Source of the DNA: a virus
Taxonomy: Duplodnaviria; Caudoviricetes
Length of the DNA stretch: 32,496 nucleotides
Virus record (IMG/VR): IMGVR_UViG_3300048856_000017
Span: 1 to 32,496 of that record
Strand: one strand, 5' to 3'
Shown: positions 22,055 to 32,496 of the stretch, one piece after another
How positions within the stretch are numbered: the first letter of the stretch is position 1
Layout of the letters: each line of letters begins with the position of its first letter
The notes under the pieces: generated by a model
Databases searched by the model: none
Told to the model about the DNA's origin: nothing
Seen by the model: the letters and a program-made list of their open reading frames with translations, nothing else
Made by a program: the position numbers and the translations under genes

Positions 22055-22749
22055 GCATGAAACTGCACAAGGTGCTGACCATCAACGGCGCGGTCGTTTC
22101 CCTAGTGAACGACGACGTTCGGCTTGACCTCAAGAGCCCGGGCCGGGCCACGTTCACCGTCCAGGGCGGTGCACAGGTCAAAGGCCTGGTCACGCTGGAC
22201 ATCGGTTACAACGAGTCCGCGCTGCAGCGGCACTTCATTGGCTACGTGGAGCGCTGCACTGCGGCTAACGGCATCGAGCAGGTGGTGTACTGCCGCGAGC
22301 TGGCCGCTGTGCTCGCCGGCAAGCTGCCGATGAACCTGCGGCACGTCGACATGCGGGCCGTGCTGGTCGACGTCAGCAGCAAGACCGGTCTGCGTTTCCG
22401 CGTACCCGATCGGGACTACACGCGGGTCAAGGCACCGTTCTTCTACAGCCTGGCGTCCGGCACGCTGGCCATGGACAGCCTGGCCAAGGTGTTCGGTATC
22501 GACGATTTCATCTGGCAGCAGCAGGGCGACGGCGAGGTGTTCGCCGGATCCTGGGCTGACAGCTTTTTCGGCGCACGCGCGCCGCTGCAACTCCCGCCCA
22601 ATCTGTTCGACGGCTACCAGGGCAACCAGAGCGCAATGATCGCGGCCCTGCCCGGCCTGCGTCCGGGCGCGACAATCAACCAGGGGGAGCGCATCACCAG
22701 CGTGACGCTCGCCGGCACACAGATGGCGATCAAATGGACGAGTCAATAA
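22051..22749 (+). CDS. Baseplate hub-like protein
   Basis: Coupled ORF; IWQQQGDGEVFAGSWADS; position before the spike gene. Function inferred from synteny. Confidence 0.7.
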   Translation: MSMKLHKVLTINGAVVSLVNDDVRLDLKSPGRATFTVQGGAQVKGLVTLDIGYNESALQRHFIGYVERCTAANGIEQVVYCRELAAVLAGKLPMNLRHVDMRAVLVDVSSKTGLRFRVPDRDYTRVKAPFFYSLASGTLAMDSLAKVFGIDDFIWQQQGDGEVFAGSWADSFFGARAPLQLPPNLFDGYQGNQSAMIAALPGLRPGATINQGERITSVTLAGTQMAIKWTSQ

Positions 22750-23708
22750 AGCGCAGCGTAGAGCGCCAGTTTCCCGAGCTGACCGGCGGGTACCACCTGC
22801 CGCGCTTTGCCCGGGTGGTGGGAGTGGCCGACGCGCCGGCCGGTGCTGGCCTGTGTGACGACTTCCGGCCACGCTACGCGGTCGACATCGAGGTGCTGAC
22901 ACCAGACGGCGAGGCCGATCCGGACATGCCGATCCTGTCGGGCGTGCCGCTGCCTCTGGCCAACGGCGGCGAAGAAATGGGCATGTACGGGTTCCCGGAA
23001 GAGGGCACCCGCGTGGTCGTGTGCTTCGCTTACGGCCTGCCGAGCAGTCCCTACATCCAGACGATCTTGCCGCATGGCCTGAGCCTGCCCAGGGTGCCGA
23101 AGGGCGACCAGGTGTGGCAGCACAGCGACGCGGTGCAACAGCGCGTCGACGCGGATGGTAACTGGACCAGGAGCACTGACGGCAAGATCCGCGACGAAGC
23201 GATCGAGCGCGAGGTGCAGGCCCTTGGCAACCGCGAGCAGTTCCAGAGCCACACGCAGGCCGTCGAGCAGCATTCGACCGAGACGGTGGGAGGCGTGAAG
23301 AAGATCGAAGCCCTGGGCGCGCTCAAGCTGCTGTCTGGCGGCACCGCGAGCCTGGCGGCAGTGGATGATCTGCACCAGGCGACCGGCCGCGATTACAATC
23401 TGGTGGTAAGCAAAAAGTACAACGCGGCGGTCGGTGGTGATATGGCCGAGCGGATTCATGGCATTCGCGAGAGTGTTACCCAAGGCAGCCAACGCCTGCA
23501 GGCAACGAAGAACTGGGTGGGATCTGGCAGCATCAACATCTTTCAGGTGGTGTGTGACTTGCTCGATCTGGTCCAGGAGATGAACATGCAGATCGCCGCG
23601 CATGTCCATCCTCAGAACGGCCAAGTTCCAACCACTGCTGCAGTTTTCGCCGACGATGCTGCCCAAGCGGCCCTCCTCGCGGCAATGCTAAGGAGCGTAA
23701 CGCTTTAA
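22734..23708 (+). CDS. Baseplate spike (gpV-like) protein
   Basis: DDFRPRYAVDIEVL, FPEEGTRVVVCFAYG OB-fold-like region, beta-repeat region and terminal HVH metal motif. Confidence 0.75.
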   Translation: MDESIKRSVERQFPELTGGYHLPRFARVVGVADAPAGAGLCDDFRPRYAVDIEVLTPDGEADPDMPILSGVPLPLANGGEEMGMYGFPEEGTRVVVCFAYGLPSSPYIQTILPHGLSLPRVPKGDQVWQHSDAVQQRVDADGNWTRSTDGKIRDEAIEREVQALGNREQFQSHTQAVEQHSTETVGGVKKIEALGALKLLSGGTASLAAVDDLHQATGRDYNLVVSKKYNAAVGGDMAERIHGIRESVTQGSQRLQATKNWVGSGSINIFQVVCDLLDLVQEMNMQIAAHVHPQNGQVPTTAAVFADDAAQAALLAAMLRSVTL

Positions 23709-23714
23709 CAGACG

Positions 23715-24833
23715 TCAAGCCTCGGGGGCTAGGTCGCCAAATTCTCCAGATTCCAGACATTCTTTTGCGCAATTCACTGTCTGTTCCAAAACCGCTCTCG
23801 GGTCAGCTCGTCCATTGATCTGCTCCATCACATAATTTCGGACGTAATACATGGGGTGTTTTTGCGGGTCTAAGATGGCCAGCATTGTCTCTTTCAGACA
23901 GGTGCGAAATTTATCTTTCAGTAACGTATTTATTGTATCAGTCGAAGCTTGCATGTCATTGGAGTGCGGCGCTTGTATTTTTGCGTCTATGATTTCGTCT
24001 ATGACTGATCTGTGCCAGACGACACCGATTTGGGCTTCAAGTTCTGATGTGTCGCCAATCCTACCGATGTATATGCCCGTCAAAATTGCAGCCGGTTTAC
24101 CTAAGTGCTGGGTCACGCCCCCCGCCTTTAGAATCCCATGCTTACTGTAATGAAAAACAGGAGCGCCGGACATCCCGCTTTTGGATGCGCAATCAATCAA
24201 GAACTTTTGTTGGTTATTCCAGCCTGGGGATACGGAGGAGGCCACGGTGGCCCGTTTCCAAATTGGATTTCCGGTCCAGTCGGTGATGCCCTGGGGGTAA
24301 CCAGGGATGAACAATTCATCGGTGGGCTGCAGCAAATTCAGCCAGCTATTGATTAGGTCTTTGTCAGCCGGCTCGCAATCCTGTACCGAGGTAACGGTAA
24401 GGTCAGGTTGGCCGAAAACAGGCTGGCGAAGCGTCATCCTATGAGAGTGATTTTCTGTGCCGGCATAGTACTCGTGTACGTACGGATGATTCATATCCAG
24501 CGGGATAGCGACTACATCTACTCTTGGCCATCCTAGCGGATGGATGTAGTAGTACGTTGTGTCATGGAGATCCTCAACAGGCAGAACAAACTGCATTCGA
24601 AATCCACCGAAACTCGAATTTCTCGAAAGCCCGACCAAGATGTTGTCAGGTACTGCCAAGTACTTCTTATCTAAGAGCTGGTAGTTTTCGTTATGCCTAC
24701 CGGTGACATTGTGCCAAGCGGTTACCAAATAGTGGTTGGAATCCTTCTCATATATAACCCCTGAACCTATAGCTAATACGGTCGAGCCCCTACGCATTGT
24801 GAGGTGGGTGACGGTGTTGCTCGCGTCGTACAT
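23715..24833 (-). CDS. Cargo trypsin-like serine protease with C-terminal helical extension
   Basis: GSG, LVTAWH (H41), VDVVAI (D106), GYP, SGMSGAPV (S222); AT-richer than the flanks; AAGGGAG RBS; no signal peptide evident. Confidence 0.88.
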   Translation of the reverse strand: MYDASNTVTHLTMRRGSTVLAIGSGVIYEKDSNHYLVTAWHNVTGRHNENYQLLDKKYLAVPDNILVGLSRNSSFGGFRMQFVLPVEDLHDTTYYYIHPLGWPRVDVVAIPLDMNHPYVHEYYAGTENHSHRMTLRQPVFGQPDLTVTSVQDCEPADKDLINSWLNLLQPTDELFIPGYPQGITDWTGNPIWKRATVASSVSPGWNNQQKFLIDCASKSGMSGAPVFHYSKHGILKAGGVTQHLGKPAAILTGIYIGRIGDTSELEAQIGVVWHRSVIDEIIDAKIQAPHSNDMQASTDTINTLLKDKFRTCLKETMLAILDPQKHPMYYVRNYVMEQINGRADPRAVLEQTVNCAKECLESGEFGDLAPEA

Positions 24834-25236
24834 TGGTACTCCCTTAATTTGTAAAGCGGCATTTGGCTATAGACTCTGAAGTCGTTCTATTCCGGGGAAG
24901 TATCACAACCCAATCTAGACGAGGCGAGCTGTGCGAACCCAACATATAAAGGCTCAATTAAATCCGCCGCGAAGCCGCCGCTAGTATTGAGGCCGAGTGC
25001 GAATCCTTAGGCCCCGTGTCAGGTGATCAGCAACGCTTGCTGTGATTCAGCCACCACAATCATGGCTTTCGGCCGGGCCACGACTCTCTTCAGCTCTAAA
25101 TGCATTTCGAGCCCGCTCAAGTCAATAGTCCTTGAACTCCTCATCACTAAATCTCTCACCCGCCTTCCTCGTCGCACTGCAGAATATATCCATGCTTCGT
25201 AAAAAGCCCGCTGCGAAAAAAAACTGCTGGAAAAAA

Positions 25237-25260: not shown

Positions 25261-25610
25261 GTTCCGTATCCTTTTTTTGTGCAAACCGAAAGGCAGTGCA
25301 AACGATTCCTCAGGCCAGGCGGGCTGCGGGCTTCTGTGGGGCAAGGGCAATTGCACAGAGTGCAAAGTTTTGAGAAGAAATGAAGCGCGCTTGCATGGCG
25401 TGATAAGGACCCGTCACGAAGGGGGAGTTGCGGAAAGGCCCGGATTCATTGGGCAAAAAATCTTAAAACCCTAGGTTTGTCGGGTTTCCAAATTGGGCTG
25501 TGATGAAATACTTACGGGATTCAGGAGGAATAGGCCTACAAGGAATTCTCCTGCAAGCCTTGTGCTGGAAGGCCTGCAGGCCGGTGGGGGTCGTTCACCG
25601 CATTGCACGG

Positions 25611-26081
25611 CTAATCTCGGGGTTCAAATATCATGCACCGGACTGACTTCTTCGATAGCACGCTGGCCACGCTTCGGTTTGGCTCGATGAACCTGGGGCT
25701 TTCGGACTCTGCTAAGAGCTTGCGTAACGATGCGTCGATTGTCAGTCCGCAGCGGTATTTATCGAAGCGGATTTGTAGGTCTTTGAGGTTGATCGCCAGT
25801 GTCGACTTAGGGTTTGCTGAGTGGTTGTAAGGTTCACCCTTACCGTCAAGCAGGTCGAGTGCCGACCAGAACGGTGCTAAGGCCTCTGCAGTCGACTGTT
25901 CGGGCAAGCCGATCTCCTGGAGTGGTGGCGGCTGTAAGCCAAGCAGGGTAGAGAAGTGGGTCAGTTGTTCATGGATGGCCGAACGCAGCGCGTTATTCCT
26001 GGTTCGATGCAGTTCTCTCAGCAGGAAAATCCTATGACGGGACATTGCTATCTGTTCAGTCACACTAAAACTGGTCGGCAT
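25611..26081 (-). CDS. Protein with a stand-alone homologue of the replicase C-terminal domain
   Basis: GAGGAG RBS before ATG 26081; FW..L..NHS..AINL.D..S..P.FIE.NRS..S..K.VRC..F shared with the C-terminus of the 30033 ORF. Confidence 0.85.
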   Translation of the reverse strand: MPTSFSVTEQIAMSRHRIFLLRELHRTRNNALRSAIHEQLTHFSTLLGLQPPPLQEIGLPEQSTAEALAPFWSALDLLDGKGEPYNHSANPKSTLAINLKDLQIRFDKYRCGLTIDASLRKLLAESESPRFIEPNRSVASVLSKKSVRCMIFEPRD

Positions 26082-26371
26082 CTTTATCTCCTCTGTGCAC
26101 TTCGGCAAACGTCATTCCAGCTAACTGCAGCACCCTGCTCACGTCCTCGCCAAGCACCGCCATGGAAAACGCCATTATCTACGGTGTCATCGAATTTAGA
26201 CGCTGAACCTCTCTGACGAAGATCGTCACCAGCTGGATGGAATCCTGGCTCCGGCGCAACTTGTCGAACTCATCTTCTATGAGAGCTGTAGGGGCGGTCG
26301 TTGCGCACCGCCTTCGGCTCTAAGCGTTCCACGCAAAACGTGACTGATTCGCTTGAATTCGTTCTAGGAAA

Positions 26372-26685
26372 GGGGGTGGGGTAGAAAAAATAGCGATATG
26401 AGCGATACGCCACATCAAAGCGGCTGGAGCCCGCGGATTTGCTGGGTTCCCATATCGCTATGAGAAGGTAATACGAAGCGATATTTACGTAACATTTTCA
26501 CCAAAGGCCCGGATTCATTGGGTTCTAGGGAAAAGAAATATAGCTATTAGGAAAGGTAATACTATCGCTTTCATATCGCTCAAATATCGCCTTTTCTCGA
26601 AAACGCTGAAAGCCTTGATTCACAAGGGCTCTAGCCGTTTCCGTGGCAGCATATTACTTATATCGCTCTTTTTTTGGCCCCCCAC
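26372..26685. repeat. Iteron cluster, candidate replication origin
   Basis: AGCGATAT/ATATCGCT and GGTAATAC variants in both orientations (26392, 26401, 26452, 26466, 26477, 26555, 26562, 26573, 26584, 26651, 26660); the two ends form an imperfect inverted repeat; AT-rich and non-coding. Confidence 0.7.
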
Positions 26686-26877: not shown

Positions 26878-26922
26878 TGGTGCCGGCACCAGGAGTCGAA
26901 CCCGGGACCTACTGATTACAAG
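26878..26922 (-). tRNA. 3' half of tRNA-Thr(TGT), serving as att core; not a full tRNA gene
   Basis: CTTGTAATCAGTAGGTCCCGGGTTCGACTCCTGGTGCCGGCACCA contains the anticodon loop, T-arm and CCA; there is no D-arm or 5' acceptor strand. Confidence 0.92.
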
Positions 26923-27914: not shown

Positions 27915-28175
27915 ATGCGTCAGGGTATTCAGGAAGACACGCTACGAGCCATGCTCGAAGCCAATGCGGTGCGCGAGGTGCTGGTCAGCCGGCACGACGA
28001 GAAATGGTCCTTGGCGATCCGTGTGGGCGGTGCCGGCAGCCGCTGGCTACCGGTACGCTCGCGCCGTGAGGCGCTGCGTACCTGGGCCAGCCTGACGGCG
28101 GTTGGACGCTTCGCTGAATCGGCAGGCATCAAGGCGTTCCAAGTGGAAGTCTCCGGCCGTTCGCTAGGTTTGTGA
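27915..28175 (+). CDS. Small protein resembling plasmid-associated 'ParC/partition C'-like family
   Basis: TLRAMLEANAVREV...W.L.IR.G...RS.R...R.W..L..V......GI..F.V pattern, recalled from small plasmid proteins; not verified. Confidence 0.6.
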   Translation: MRQGIQEDTLRAMLEANAVREVLVSRHDEKWSLAIRVGGAGSRWLPVRSRREALRTWASLTAVGRFAESAGIKAFQVEVSGRSLGL

Positions 28176-29312
28176 GGCGTTGACCAGCGGAACGCTGAGG
28201 TCGTAGATGTCCATCATCGCTTCGCCCCGGTGCCCGCTGGCTTGCTGCTTGTCGGCGCGGTTGCCGGCCGTGTCGGTGATGCCGCGGCGCTTGAGGTCAT
28301 GCAGGCCAAAGCGCTGCGTCGCGTCGATGGTGCCGTCCTCGATCGCCGAGGTGATGAACCGCTGCCAGGCGGTGTCCAGGCTGGACTTGCGCAAGGCCCC
28401 ACCGTGGCTGGCGACGATGAGGAAGCGCCGATCGGGGCGGATCGGGATGACCGTCGTTTGGCTGGCCCACACCTTGGCCCGATAGGCCTTGGCCCCTTCC
28501 CAGGCCGCCCGCAATCGCGGCGTCCAGCGCACGATATTGTCCCGACTGCCCTTGCGCCGATTGGTCATGATGCCTTCGGGCAGCTCGTGGGCGTCGGTCA
28601 GCGTGATCGTTTCGATGCCGCGCAGCCGACACAGGTAGGCGATCTCCATCACGTAGCTCAAATACTCCGGACAGCCGCCTTTTTCGTTCCGCGCCAGTCG
28701 ACCAAAGGCCTGGGCGCGGTCGACCAGGGCGTCCATCACCGGGTGACTGGGCAGACGGCGGCGCTTGCGTTCCACCGGGGCCTCGATGCCCAGGGCTGGG
28801 TTCACCTCAAGGAACCCCCGGTTACGGCCCCACTGCAGCACCCGCCGCAGGTAGCGCAACGCGTGCGCGGCTTTCGACGGGGTGCCTTCGTCCGCCAGGC
28901 GATCGACGATCCGCTGCACCAGGGCGGCGGTGAACTTCTTGACCGTCAGGTCGCCGAGCGGTTTACCCAGCCGGGTGGGAAGGCCCAGCAGCACGTCCCG
29001 TGAGTAGCAGTAGTCCGCCTGGGTCTTGGGGGCCAGTCGTTGATAGCGATCGCTGCGGTGAAATTGCGCGCACACATACCGCAAGGTGCCCCGGTCCACG
29101 CCCGAGGTGTGTTCCATGATCTGGTGCAGGTCGGCCAGGCTGACCTGGGCCGGAGCAACGTTGCGCCTGCGCTGTTTGCCGGTCTCGTCGTAGTGCAGCG
29201 TGTACCACACGCCGCTGCCGCGATGATCGAAATAAATGGCCGCTGGAAGCGCGGCCTGGTCGATATGGGCGGGGATGTGCGGATTGTGCTTCCGCTTCCG
29301 TGCTTTCCTCAT
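28164..29312 (-). CDS. int: Tyrosine recombinase (integrase)
   Basis: YLCRLRGIE (R), RRKGS (K), HDLKR, SGH, IY catalytic motifs; transcribed toward attP. Confidence 0.92.
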   Translation of the reverse strand: MRKARKRKHNPHIPAHIDQAALPAAIYFDHRGSGVWYTLHYDETGKQRRRNVAPAQVSLADLHQIMEHTSGVDRGTLRYVCAQFHRSDRYQRLAPKTQADYCYSRDVLLGLPTRLGKPLGDLTVKKFTAALVQRIVDRLADEGTPSKAAHALRYLRRVLQWGRNRGFLEVNPALGIEAPVERKRRRLPSHPVMDALVDRAQAFGRLARNEKGGCPEYLSYVMEIAYLCRLRGIETITLTDAHELPEGIMTNRRKGSRDNIVRWTPRLRAAWEGAKAYRAKVWASQTTVIPIRPDRRFLIVASHGGALRKSSLDTAWQRFITSAIEDGTIDATQRFGLHDLKRRGITDTAGNRADKQQASGHRGEAMMDIYDLSVPLVNASQT

Positions 29313-30032: not shown

Positions 30033-32496
30033 TCACCCCGCCTGGAACATCCAACACCGCACGGTTTTCGGCTTATCGGCGGCATCAGTTGCCCAGGCCG
30101 AACAGATGCTCCTGTTGGACTCAATAAACTTTGGGCACTTGCTGGTTTTCAGGTGGCGTTTGAGTTCAGTCAGGTCTGGCACTTTCTGACGGTGCTCCGC
30201 GGCTTCTTTGGCAAAGTCGTTGAGGTTCACCGCGATGAAGGCTTCATTGCGGGAGTGGTTCAGGCCGCCGGCGGTGCTGTTCAGGTACTCGTACAGCTCC
30301 CAGAACTCGACCACGATCGGGTGATCGGCATTGATCGCCAGCTGGCGTTCCTTGGCCATGTTCTGGATCTCGCTGTGGGCTGCTTCCACCTGATGTTTTT
30401 TCAGCGGCACAACGTGCGTCAGGGCATCAACGAGGGCATGCAGTTGCGCGTGGTTTTTGGCGATCCGCACGGTGCGGATTTCCGGCAGGGCGAGCAGCTG
30501 CTGTTCGTACTTCGGCCCTTTCTCCCGAACCGTCTCCATCACCATGCTTTCAGTCATCGTGGACTTGACCAGAAATCCGCTGACCCGGTCGACCGGCATG
30601 CGCTCAAGTTTCTCGACCAGCAATTTTGTCTGCGGGGTCTGACCTTCTTTTGTCATGGCGATGTGAACGATGCGCTGCAGGATGGGCTCGGAGGCGTTCA
30701 CCGCATGGTTTTGGCCGATGACCACTGCGCCTCGAAAAGGCGGTTCGCGTGTGTCGTTGCCGTTGTTCTTCACGCCGGTGGAGCGGACGCTGCGCCCGTT
30801 GTAAGCGGTCTTCAGTTCATCCCAGTCGTACTGTTTCGTCGGCCCACCATCGCTTTTTTCCCGTTCCGACTCGATCAGTACGACCGGCAGGTTGCCGACC
30901 TGGGCGAAGTTACGGGCCCGAGCGACTGGCGTGCCTTTGGTGGGGTCAAACCCTTCGTAATCGATACGGCCGCAGAGCTTCCACAGAAACTCGATCAGCG
31001 TGGACTTACCAGCGCCCGGCTCACCGATGATTTCCATGAAGGGATAGCTTTTCTGGTGCTGCCGGATCTGCTCGGCGAACAGCGAGCCAAACCAGAACGC
31101 GAGCGCGACCAGGCCTTTAGCGCCGAAGCACTCCCAGATGATATCCAGCCACTCGGTGTCGAACTTCTGCAGGTCCGTATTGAGGTTGAGGGTGACCGAC
31201 TGGCTGAGGGTCTTGATGCTCAGCCGCTCCATATCGAAGAAGTCTTCTTCGTTCAGCTTGAACACCTTGCCGTCGCGTACCGCCACGTCGCCATAGACAT
31301 AGGCACCGTGCTCACGGGTGTAACCGGTGAAGTCGATGGTCTGCACGGTCTTGAGGGCGTCGGTCTGTTCCTCAATGAAGGCGTCCAGTTGCTGAGTGGT
31401 ACCGGTAAACATCCCGCCTGGGGCAATACCGAGCAGGCGCTTTTTGAACTCGGCAGACGATGCGATCTGCGAGCTGGTAAAGGTGTTCTTGATCGGCGCT
31501 GCGTCGTGGGCAAACGTGATCCGGAAGTAATACCAGGATTCGTCGGTCAGTTTGTTTTCCTGGTAATACAGCGCTTTAGGATTGCAGGTCGCAATACGCT
31601 GCAGCGCGCCGCACTGTTGCATGGCCTTGGCTCGCATCTGCTTGTTGTTCAGCAGCTGGTCGTCGTGGTGCTCGCTGTCCTCAAGCTCTTGGATCGCCTT
31701 GTTGTACTTTTCCAGATCGAGCTTGAACCAGTACAGACGGTTGCCGAACTCCAAGTGGAATTCGCTCCGGCGCTTCCAGTCGAACATGACCAGAGCCTTC
31801 TCTGTAGCGTTCTCGGCGATCAGGAGCGCGCCGTGGTGCCGTGCGATGGCAATGTCCTTCTCCACTTGCGCATCACGCTTCTCGCCTTCGTCCAGGAACG
31901 CCCAGCGCTGATGCAGGTCGTTCCAGTCAACCTTGCGTGCATCGCGCTGGGGGATCTGGGCCGCCTCACACACGAAGCCCATTTCTCGCGCCTGGCGGAC
32001 CCAGCGCTTCGTGTAGGCATGCGCGCCTGGCTCGTTATCGAGTGCCCAGACCAGTCTCGGCAGCTTGCCTGCGCGCTGTGTCACCAGTGCTTTCAGCGAA
32101 TCTTCAGGAAAGGCGTTTGAGGACATCGCTGACACGGCGTCGATACCGTTGTGCACCAGGGCGATCGCATCGAAGATCCCTTCGACAATCCACAATTCCT
32201 TGACCTCCTGTAGGTCAACGGACGGCGGGCACCACCACACGCCCTTGTAGCTCTCGCCAGGCATGAACCGCGCTTTCATTTTTCCGAAGCGGGCGGGCCG
32301 GTCGATCAGCCGTTCCCAGTACCCTCCTTTGTCGAGGGCAAACCGGACCGTGGCACTGCCGGCGTTGTCTTTCGCGGAGTGGAACGACTCTTGGGTGAAC
32401 CAGCCGGAGATCAACTCCATTTTGAAGCTGCGAGCAAACTCCAGGTAAGCGCGAGCGGTGGCTGTCGGGGCGTTGTCGGATGCCGGCGCGAGCTTG
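30033..32496 (-). CDS. Primase-helicase replicase (TOPRIM + P-loop helicase + C-terminal domain), P4 alpha-like architecture
   Basis: TOPRIM WIVEGIFDAIAL and WALDNE; Walker A GEPGAGKST; VLIE Walker B; N-terminus lies at 357->128 across the junction. Confidence 0.93.
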   Translation of the reverse strand, partial: KLAPASDNAPTATARAYLEFARSFKMELISGWFTQESFHSAKDNAGSATVRFALDKGGYWERLIDRPARFGKMKARFMPGESYKGVWWCPPSVDLQEVKELWIVEGIFDAIALVHNGIDAVSAMSSNAFPEDSLKALVTQRAGKLPRLVWALDNEPGAHAYTKRWVRQAREMGFVCEAAQIPQRDARKVDWNDLHQRWAFLDEGEKRDAQVEKDIAIARHHGALLIAENATEKALVMFDWKRRSEFHLEFGNRLYWFKLDLEKYNKAIQELEDSEHHDDQLLNNKQMRAKAMQQCGALQRIATCNPKALYYQENKLTDESWYYFRITFAHDAAPIKNTFTSSQIASSAEFKKRLLGIAPGGMFTGTTQQLDAFIEEQTDALKTVQTIDFTGYTREHGAYVYGDVAVRDGKVFKLNEEDFFDMERLSIKTLSQSVTLNLNTDLQKFDTEWLDIIWECFGAKGLVALAFWFGSLFAEQIRQHQKSYPFMEIIGEPGAGKSTLIEFLWKLCGRIDYEGFDPTKGTPVARARNFAQVGNLPVVLIESEREKSDGGPTKQYDWDELKTAYNGRSVRSTGVKNNGNDTREPPFRGAVVIGQNHAVNASEPILQRIVHIAMTKEGQTPQTKLLVEKLERMPVDRVSGFLVKSTMTESMVMETVREKGPKYEQQLLALPEIRTVRIAKNHAQLHALVDALTHVVPLKKHQVEAAHSEIQNMAKERQLAINADHPIVVEFWELYEYLNSTAGGLNHSRNEAFIAVNLNDFAKEAAEHRQKVPDLTELKRHLKTSKCPKFIESNRSICSAWATDAADKPKTVRCWMFQAG

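Follow-up and report, generated by a model that had tools for sequence, protein, structure and literature searches.

A conserved trypsin-fold protease with a GatB/YqeY-type tail in a phage cargo hotspot: a candidate single-gene defence protein

The window analysed here is the whole of a 32,496-nucleotide record of a tailed virus (IMG/VR IMGVR_UViG_3300048856_000017, positions 1 to 32,496). It carries a 127-bp terminal repeat (1-127 and 32370-32496), and the record is therefore a circular, probably complete phage genome. Its head and tail genes are of P2/HP1 type, and its host is likely a Pseudomonas, given that its baseplate protein is 67-78% identical to the counterparts in the Pseudomonas phages phi3 and UFJF_PfPro. 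Behind the last baseplate gene of the tail operon lies an ORF on the opposite strand that encodes a 372-aa fusion (P0001) of a trypsin-fold protease and a GatB/YqeY-type tail. The features of this locus, with their evidence in brackets, are:

22734-23708, plus strand: last baseplate gene of the tail operon; the cargo hotspot starts right after it (annotation, relatives)
23715-24833, minus strand: protease-GatB-tail fusion gene, P0001, 372 aa (ORF, homologue alignment, AlphaFold model)
24837-24850, minus strand: purine-rich ribosome-binding-like site, immediately 5' of the ATG (read directly from the sequence)
23973-24833, minus strand: trypsin-fold (HtrA/DegS-like) protease domain, residues 1-287, cytoplasmic by hydropathy (Pfam, fold searches, hydropathy)
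24711-24713, minus strand: codon of catalytic His41 (conservation)
24516-24518, minus strand: codon of catalytic Asp106 (conservation)
24168-24170, minus strand: codon of catalytic Ser222 (conservation)
24060-24071, minus strand: Tyr255-Arg258, putative lining of the S1 pocket (invariant in 75/75 family rows; presumed position)
23748-23972, minus strand: GatB/YqeY-type tail domain, residues 288-362, four helices (profiles, hhalign, models)
23799-23828, minus strand: Met336, Gly341, Arg342, Ala343 and Pro345, equivalent of the GatB pocket (alignment with S. aureus M452, G457, A459 and P461)

The fusion ORF converges on the baseplate gene from the minus strand and its end lies 6 bp past that gene's stop, bearing out the original prediction of a lone gene antisense to the tail operon. 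The description "AT-rich", also part of that prediction, holds only relative to the neighbouring operon (GC 49.2% against 64.5% in the head-tail operon; GC3 55% against 78%). Counts of promoters and terminators around the gene were at chance level. Within the window, ARAGORN found no whole tRNA gene and no Rfam family was detected; an RNA holder was also looked for, and none was listed. The phage encodes a scaffold protease of its own, apart from the fusion gene.

Two further features of the window were observed. A 45-base stretch on the minus strand (26878-26922) reads by eye as the 3' half of a tRNA-Thr(UGU) ending in CCA; it lies ~1.2 kb from the integrase gene (28164-29312) and is probably the attP core. 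To the left of this site, a 165-aa ORF on the minus strand (25611-26108; phrog_20645) is similar to the last ~90 aa of the primase that the phage itself encodes (phrog_1139), as a stand-alone copy of that domain, and is flanked by a 20-bp direct repeat (25434-25453 and ~26503-26522).

The fusion protein matches Pfam Trypsin_2 (E 5.8e-7). Its AlphaFold model, built on a 120-row alignment, has a pLDDT of 94 and a pTM of 0.93; Foldseek recognised the full model as a trypsin fold (double beta-barrel), and the best VIA-align match was DegS (Z 18.6, rmsd 2.8, 184 aligned). The catalytic triad had been placed correctly at H41, D106 and S222: among 120 aligned homologues H41 and S222 never vary and conservation of D106 is at least 90%, and the His-Asp-Ser residues occur in order and are kept in 75/75 rows of our tree, tail-bearing and tail-less alike, as are D214, G220, Y255 and R258. 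Arg258 is thus also kept in 54/54 tail-less relatives. We take Tyr255-Arg258 to correspond to chymotrypsin 213-216, with R258 at S1 pocket position 216, and such a pocket is predicted from sequence to favour, at the level of a hint, cleavage after acidic residues. Since the active-site residues are identical in both groups, tail-bearing and tail-less proteins probably share their specificity.

By a hydropathy test, the one measure behind this call, 0/120 proteins exceeded the cut-offs for a signal peptide or membrane segment, in line with the predicted lack of a signal peptide, and family members begin at about the same residue. HtrA and DegS provide the nearest solved folds and likewise join a protease to a small C-terminal domain; unlike them, the fusion has no signal peptide, anchor or PDZ domain, and identity is 18%. 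The NCBIfam HtrA model scored 16.7 bits against a cut-off of 650. A weak PADLOC match to LmuA covered residues 22-49 (E 1.9e-5), ESM Atlas returned only trypsin clusters for the family protein P0141, and a homodimer prediction score of 0.01 speaks neither for nor against a dimer.

The extra helical C-terminal segment noticed at the outset (the part quoted then being residues 300-351, window 23936-23781) forms four helices in the AlphaFold model (298-310, 314-320, 327-338 and 345-362). It is present in 120/120 listed homologues and is therefore not a chance extension. The protease-tail junction also recurs near-identically, with one mismatch each, in two other metagenome runs (X2 23887-24037 and X3 23823-23973). 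An assembly chimera or a chance resemblance is ruled out by these junction fragments, by the tail in all listed homologues and by the failure of the reversed and shuffled controls described below.

By sequence comparison, the tail is homologous to the tail domain of GatB and YqeY. In hhalign, the tail profile aligned with 28 GatB-type tails over 56 columns (89.4%, E 2e-6), and the best PDB match of a 23-row tail profile was GatB (3h0l_B, E 0.0027), followed by an annexin (E 0.1) and, third, S. aureus GatB (E 0.23). PF02637 was matched by 8/23 tails (best 3.2e-4), and each of 16 other families by 1/23. A GatB-tail HMM gave at least 10 bits for 37 of 139 tails (maximum 25.9) and for none of the 139 reversed (maximum 6.2) or 139 shuffled (maximum 3.3) controls. 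The window's own tail scored 8.2 bits with this HMM and had no Pfam match when searched alone, so the GatB match rests on the family. Searching five whole genomes with the tail profile returned seven matches: three own genes, two GatB, one long protein (by eye a glutaminyl-tRNA synthetase) bearing a GatB-type tail, and one chance match. Three of the four non-self matches were GatB-type tails; the divergent tail at locus L014 was missed. Pfam Trypsin_2 and GatB_Yqey occurred together in 5/8 full-length members chosen for GatB-like or divergent tails, all GatB_Yqey scores lying below the 27-bit cut-off (best 22.3). Only the ~60-aa tail domain is present (PF02637 positions ~92-146 of 148), and GatB's helical spacer domain is absent from the fusion protein.

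Fold searches with the tail agree with this assignment, weakly when taken alone. The isolated tail was modelled with a pLDDT of 85. Foldseek ranked GatB first and third at weak E values (0.98 and 2.4), with nothing at E 0.001. VIA-align placed three YqeY chains (rmsd 2.0-2.6) and two GlnRS chains in its first 23 rows, including YqeY 8xje (Z 6.2, rmsd 2.2, 56 aligned) and 8xjg (Z 5.6, rmsd 2.0), with an unrelated chain in the top row (Z 6.5) and all rows below Z 8. ESM Atlas gave no usable feature match for the tail, and a YqeY cluster stood at rank 9 of its structure list, under the bar. As a separate observation, a putative glutaminyl-tRNA synthetase with a GatB-type tail (L126:1489-3114, minus strand) is encoded ~9 kb from a protease gene of the family on the same contig (G002:C47), which is probably a coincidence.

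Earlier work on GatB (PMC2811023) describes a conserved pocket of V449, M452, G457, A459 and P461, ringed by basic residues; a docking model and SAXS led to the proposal that it reads the tRNA D-loop. The pocket loop also has a structural role and contacts within GatB. The same source places a Lys-rich motif, KXGKXK, near the tRNA variable loop, reports that its replacement lowers tRNA affinity, and describes GatE and YqeY as also lacking it. YqeY is called poorly characterised in PMC13374519. Four of the five pocket residues are found in the fusion, M336, G341, A343 and P345 aligning with GatB M452, G457, A459 and P461; the Val position (V449 of PMC2811023, which reads as V448 in the aligned GatB chain) is mostly Arg (R332, 61/120). 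The most conserved columns of the tail are R342 (119/120), G341 (115/120), A356 (113/120) and A343 (110/120), M336 is M or L in 115/120, and P345 is kept in 92/120. The pocket loop has Arg where GatB/YqeY tails have Lys or Gln. The helix-loop is as basic as in GatB (median net charge +3 vs +2), and the whole tail has a median net charge of -1 vs +2 in GatB. A relaxed pattern for the Lys-rich motif matched 0/139 tails vs 23/28 GatB-type tails, and mean column entropy was 2.17 bits in the tail vs 1.53 bits in the protease.

This pocket pattern favours RNA binding as judged from sequence, and a kept pocket combined with loss of the isoacceptor-sorting Lys motif would suit a general grip on the tRNA elbow. 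Because the pocket loop is structural in GatB, its conservation need not mean RNA binding, and the whole-model pTM of 0.93 suggests that the tail packs on the protease domain, so that the pocket could be buried. Weighing the residues kept, we give the prediction that the tail binds the tRNA elbow a little under an even chance. The likeness to GatB/YqeY first seen by eye stood as homology of the tail (hhalign, HMM, PDB profile), with weak agreement from the ranking of GatB by Foldseek and of YqeY by VIA-align, where unrelated chains scored as well. It did not extend beyond the ~60-aa tail domain, to the Lys motif, to a Pfam-level score for the window's own tail or to strong fold scores.

In the homologue search, 574/2218 candidates passed E 0.001. 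The 120 homologues listed are 351-416 aa long and 40-46% identical at 93-100% query coverage, and tail-bearing members come from at least two phyla. An exhaustive profile search gave 4343 representatives at E 0.001; among the best 150 of these, the top-scoring full-length rows were tail-bearing and the others were either fragments or proteins lacking the tail, most of the latter 240-300 aa long. The wider family is distantly related to PADLOC PDC-S45 and to phrog_7688 (function unknown), and the great majority of its members have no tail. The tail is therefore an addition to a protease whose large family is otherwise tail-less, and as the tail-less relatives keep the same active-site residues, the basic job of the family does not depend on it. 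A quick tree built from the protease domain only (21 tail-bearing and 54 tail-less rows, the latter every second one of at least 240 aa, picked by a profile of tail-bearing members, with a midpoint root) placed all 21 tail-bearing rows on one side of a branch with SH-aLRT 100. This fits a single acquisition of the tail and does not prove it.

The gene is rare and looks foreign. It was found at full length in 2/401 genomes of one Pseudomonas genus, one of them the seed, its GC content was below that of the flanks in 24/26 tail-bearing loci, and the family occurs in at least five different phage settings. Annotated phages gave no match at 1e-5 and a weak partial match in Shigella phage SfII at 0.01. 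Among plasmids, none of 91 matching records covered 80% of the query, and none of the 30 matches listed extends beyond residue 296; Klebsiella plasmids repeatedly carry a tail-less relative annotated as "serine protease" (H9-H30; 69/91 matching records). A search of 7995 candidates of 729-2080 aa for longer fusions yielded none, which is weak evidence, and the three matches to stand-alone tails or tails on small proteins among 523 candidates (43-109 aa) are probably fragments. Two groups of members stood apart. L014 and L015 (9962-11152), directly upstream of a PHP-ATPase (Ppl-like) gene, have a tail without the Gly-Arg-Ala motif and are natural controls for tail function. The homologues at L016:10001-10873 and L022:2965-4004 are broken by stops or a frameshift, through decay or MAG assembly error.

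In the best 80 of 469 related phages we compared the 4.5 kb that follow the corresponding baseplate gene, scanning 150/153 cluster representatives. The DNA there is low in GC and variable, and the first ORF fell into 50 clusters among the 73 loci having one. PADLOC matched in 21 of the best 80, which makes this a variable cargo locus that often carries defence genes and agrees with the original statement that P2-like phages carry defence cargo at variable loci; 11 of these loci held named systems (AbiL, bSEFIR, SoFic, RmrA/T, DrmD, and AriA-like, NsnA-like and HEC-06-like systems) and 10 held PDC candidates only. Left out of this count as spurious were a 63-aa PDC-M03A match, an orphan-type methylase and the homologue itself at L067. 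Other cargo was not defensive and included a 2OG-Fe oxygenase, an acyltransferase and a Tlde1 domain. The protease family itself occupied this locus in 1/80 (L067, the same contig as L035). The hotspot of phi3-like phages (L041-L120) also holds numerous large ORFs of low GC that match neither PADLOC nor Pfam (for example L045:2054-3484, L084:7059-7841, L116:7012-9051 and L092:7011-8018), and these are a source of candidate defence genes.

We also gathered 34 genome loci and 6 viral loci and scanned the neighbours of 21 and 5, respectively. The expected association of homologues with defence islands and prophage hotspots was found in part: a defence match lay within three ORFs in 9/20 tail-bearing genome loci, a raw count with no background rate, and was absent in 11/20. 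At L001 the neighbours are a NERD helicase and a WYL gene, with an E1-E2-JAB gene nearby; L002 adjoins gajA (Gabija), L003 follows qatABCD (Qat), and at L006 the homologue is flanked by a type II restriction enzyme and the cognate methylase, whose start it overlaps. The other loci with a match are L008, L011, L014, L015 and L017, of which L014 and L015 are not independent. A tail-less relative (L033) lies within a type I R-M operon. Loci L004, L005, L007, L021 and L022 have housekeeping genes as neighbours (mazG before L004, pfk and ppa on either side of L005, hisD before L021); matches to RlmD, RelA, a methyltransferase and TatD at L004, L005 and L021 were dropped as spurious. Two viral copies, L038 in the gap between P2-type tail S and baseplate genes and L040 between the Q and lysozyme genes, occupy what we take to be known cargo slots. 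In agreement with a single-gene organisation, no neighbour family within 3 kb occurred in more than 2/39 loci, leaving no conserved partner or effector gene; the 28 neighbour clusters each joined only 2/39 loci and were mostly near-duplicate loci or phage backbone.

The fusion's only strong PADLOC match was PDC-S45, a single-gene candidate (E 7e-18; Payne et al., 10.1101/2024.01.29.577857), which was matched by 21/21 family proteins scanned, with or without a tail. Such candidates are defined by their embedding in defence operons and are presented in that preprint as predictions. The match is confined to residues 164-267 (62.6 bits; best stretch 103 of the 293 positions of model PDLC05022), and the 293-position model does not reach the tail. 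A prophage gene named PDC-S45 in PMC12429752 scores E 4e-94, vs 7e-18 for the fusion. The fusion shares with PDC-S45 its single-gene form and the occurrence of members within R-M operons (L006 and the tail-less L033), and by sequence it appears to be a distant relative, not a clear member.

Other known proteins resemble parts of the fusion. With the GatB tail and the YqeY C-terminal domain (PF02637, PF09424) it has in common the homologous four-helix tail, the M/G/A/P pocket and the basic helix-loop; unlike in GatB, the tail sits on a protease in a mobile gene, with neither the helical spacer nor the Lys-rich motif. The GatB-type tail has a precedent as an add-on module, being appended to some GlnRS, such as that of Deinococcus (PMC2811023). 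The closest functional model is Lit of prophage e14, also a protease encoded by a single prophage gene. In the Gol-Lit exclusion, this latent protease cuts EF-Tu on infection and translation stops (PMC3014915). Lit is, however, a zinc metalloprotease activated by a phage peptide bound to EF-Tu, and the fusion is not homologous to it; no tRNA-reading domain is described in Lit. Trypsin-like proteases also act in phage defence in modules of Hachiman, AVAST, Lamassu and DRT systems, fused there to a sensor and cutting an effector encoded next to them (10.1101/2025.07.28.667249 and 10.1101/2025.11.14.688446). The fusion has no conserved adjacent effector; it is no module of this type, nor is it an HtrA protease. 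As the original prediction had supposed, we found no description of a protease-GatB-tail fusion in the literature covered, which included few subscription papers and the PDC preprint without its supplements. The fusion is real, conserved and apparently undescribed.

The explanation we favour is that this lone trypsin-fold protease with its GatB-type tail, carried in a phage cargo hotspot, would serve as a one-gene anti-phage defence. With no encoded substrate, a lone cytoplasmic protease must cut a host or phage protein, and the hotspot location makes protection of the lysogen the likeliest purpose; from genomic context, we consider a role in anti-phage defence probable. The location, together with a pocket kept and a Lys motif lost, favours a latent protease aimed or released by tRNA. 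The tail would grip the tRNA elbow and so aim the protease at the translation machinery or switch it on there. The target would probably be a tRNA-bound host protein (an elongation factor, a synthetase or a nascent chain); if it were cut on infection, translation would stop and the infected lysogen would abort, as with Lit and EF-Tu. The trigger is a guess, and could be free, uncharged, cleaved or phage-encoded tRNA. Taken as a whole, an anti-phage protease aimed or released by tRNA that cuts a tRNA-bound translation component with an abortive outcome is a tentative proposal. Its more specific form, a tRNA-gated immune protease in which a captured GatB elbow reader senses the tRNA pool, as signal or for homing, and destroys a tRNA-bound translation component, is a bolder conjecture that we hold to be doubtful.

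The tail may instead have lost RNA binding and act as a lid or as a protein sensor, released by a phage protein, on what would still be a defence protease. PDZ domains are the regulatory domains of HtrA proteases; DegS and HtrA are the closest folds to the fusion, with the regulatory domain at the same C-terminal place. The loss of the Lys motif and the slightly acidic charge of the whole tail (median -1 vs +2) would also fit a lid or sensor, the high pTM suggests fixed packing, and the context evidence is shared with the tRNA-aimed reading. Yet what the tail conserves is the proposed D-loop pocket, with a near-invariant Arg and a basic helix, though the rest of it varies widely, and we judge the lid or sensor to be somewhat unlikely.

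In a second alternative the protein would be a translation enzyme with no part in defence, its tail holding tRNA and its triad trimming stalled nascent chains or hydrolysing aminoacyl- or peptidyl-tRNA esters. Serine proteases hydrolyse esters, solo copies lie among housekeeping genes, and no partner substrate gene was found. Because Arg258 is invariant, the tRNAs concerned could be Glu- or Asp-charged, and GatB's own substrates are Glu- and Asp-charged tRNAs (PMC2811023). Against such an enzyme, however, the rare, low-GC, mobile distribution is unlike that of a housekeeping gene, Arg258 is also present in 54/54 tail-less relatives, and without the helical spacer the tail may not span the distance from elbow to acceptor end. 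We regard it as distinctly unlikely.

It is improbable, too, that the fusion is simply another mobile protease of the PDC-S45-like kind, with a tail that derives from a single capture of a GatB fragment and is retained for folding stability alone. The tail-less majority of the wider family, the greater variability of tail columns (2.17 vs 1.53 bits) and the loss of the Gly-Arg-Ala motif in L014/L015-type members would accord with such a relic, but the tail has been kept in 120/120 listed homologues at ~40-46% identity, across at least two phyla and with R342 in 119/120. That the protein serves the phage itself, in counter-defence, host takeover or virion maturation, is most improbable: although the family is present in at least five phage settings, only 1/80 related phages (best 80 of 469) has it at this locus, the gene is antisense to the tail operon in a phage with its own scaffold protease, and many copies lie outside phages.

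tRNA is a well-known target of bacterial immune nucleases. Defence proteases switched on by fused sensors or by phage peptides are known as well (10.1101/2025.07.28.667249, 10.1101/2025.11.14.688446 and PMC3014915). A tRNA-reading domain taken from GatB and steering a protease would, if the tRNA-aimed reading is true, join both themes in one 370-aa protein. The fusion lends itself to easy testing: it is a single gene, its catalytic site can be cleanly mutated, its tail can be removed, and natural relatives that lack the tail but share the active site can serve as controls. If the tail proved to be a lid or a relic, the fusion would be one more candidate solo defence protease with an unusual appendix. 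If the tRNA-aimed reading is true, the wide PDC-S45-like family (4343 representatives at E 0.001) would gain its first function, and a YqeY-type tail would be seen at work outside aminoacyl-tRNA formation.
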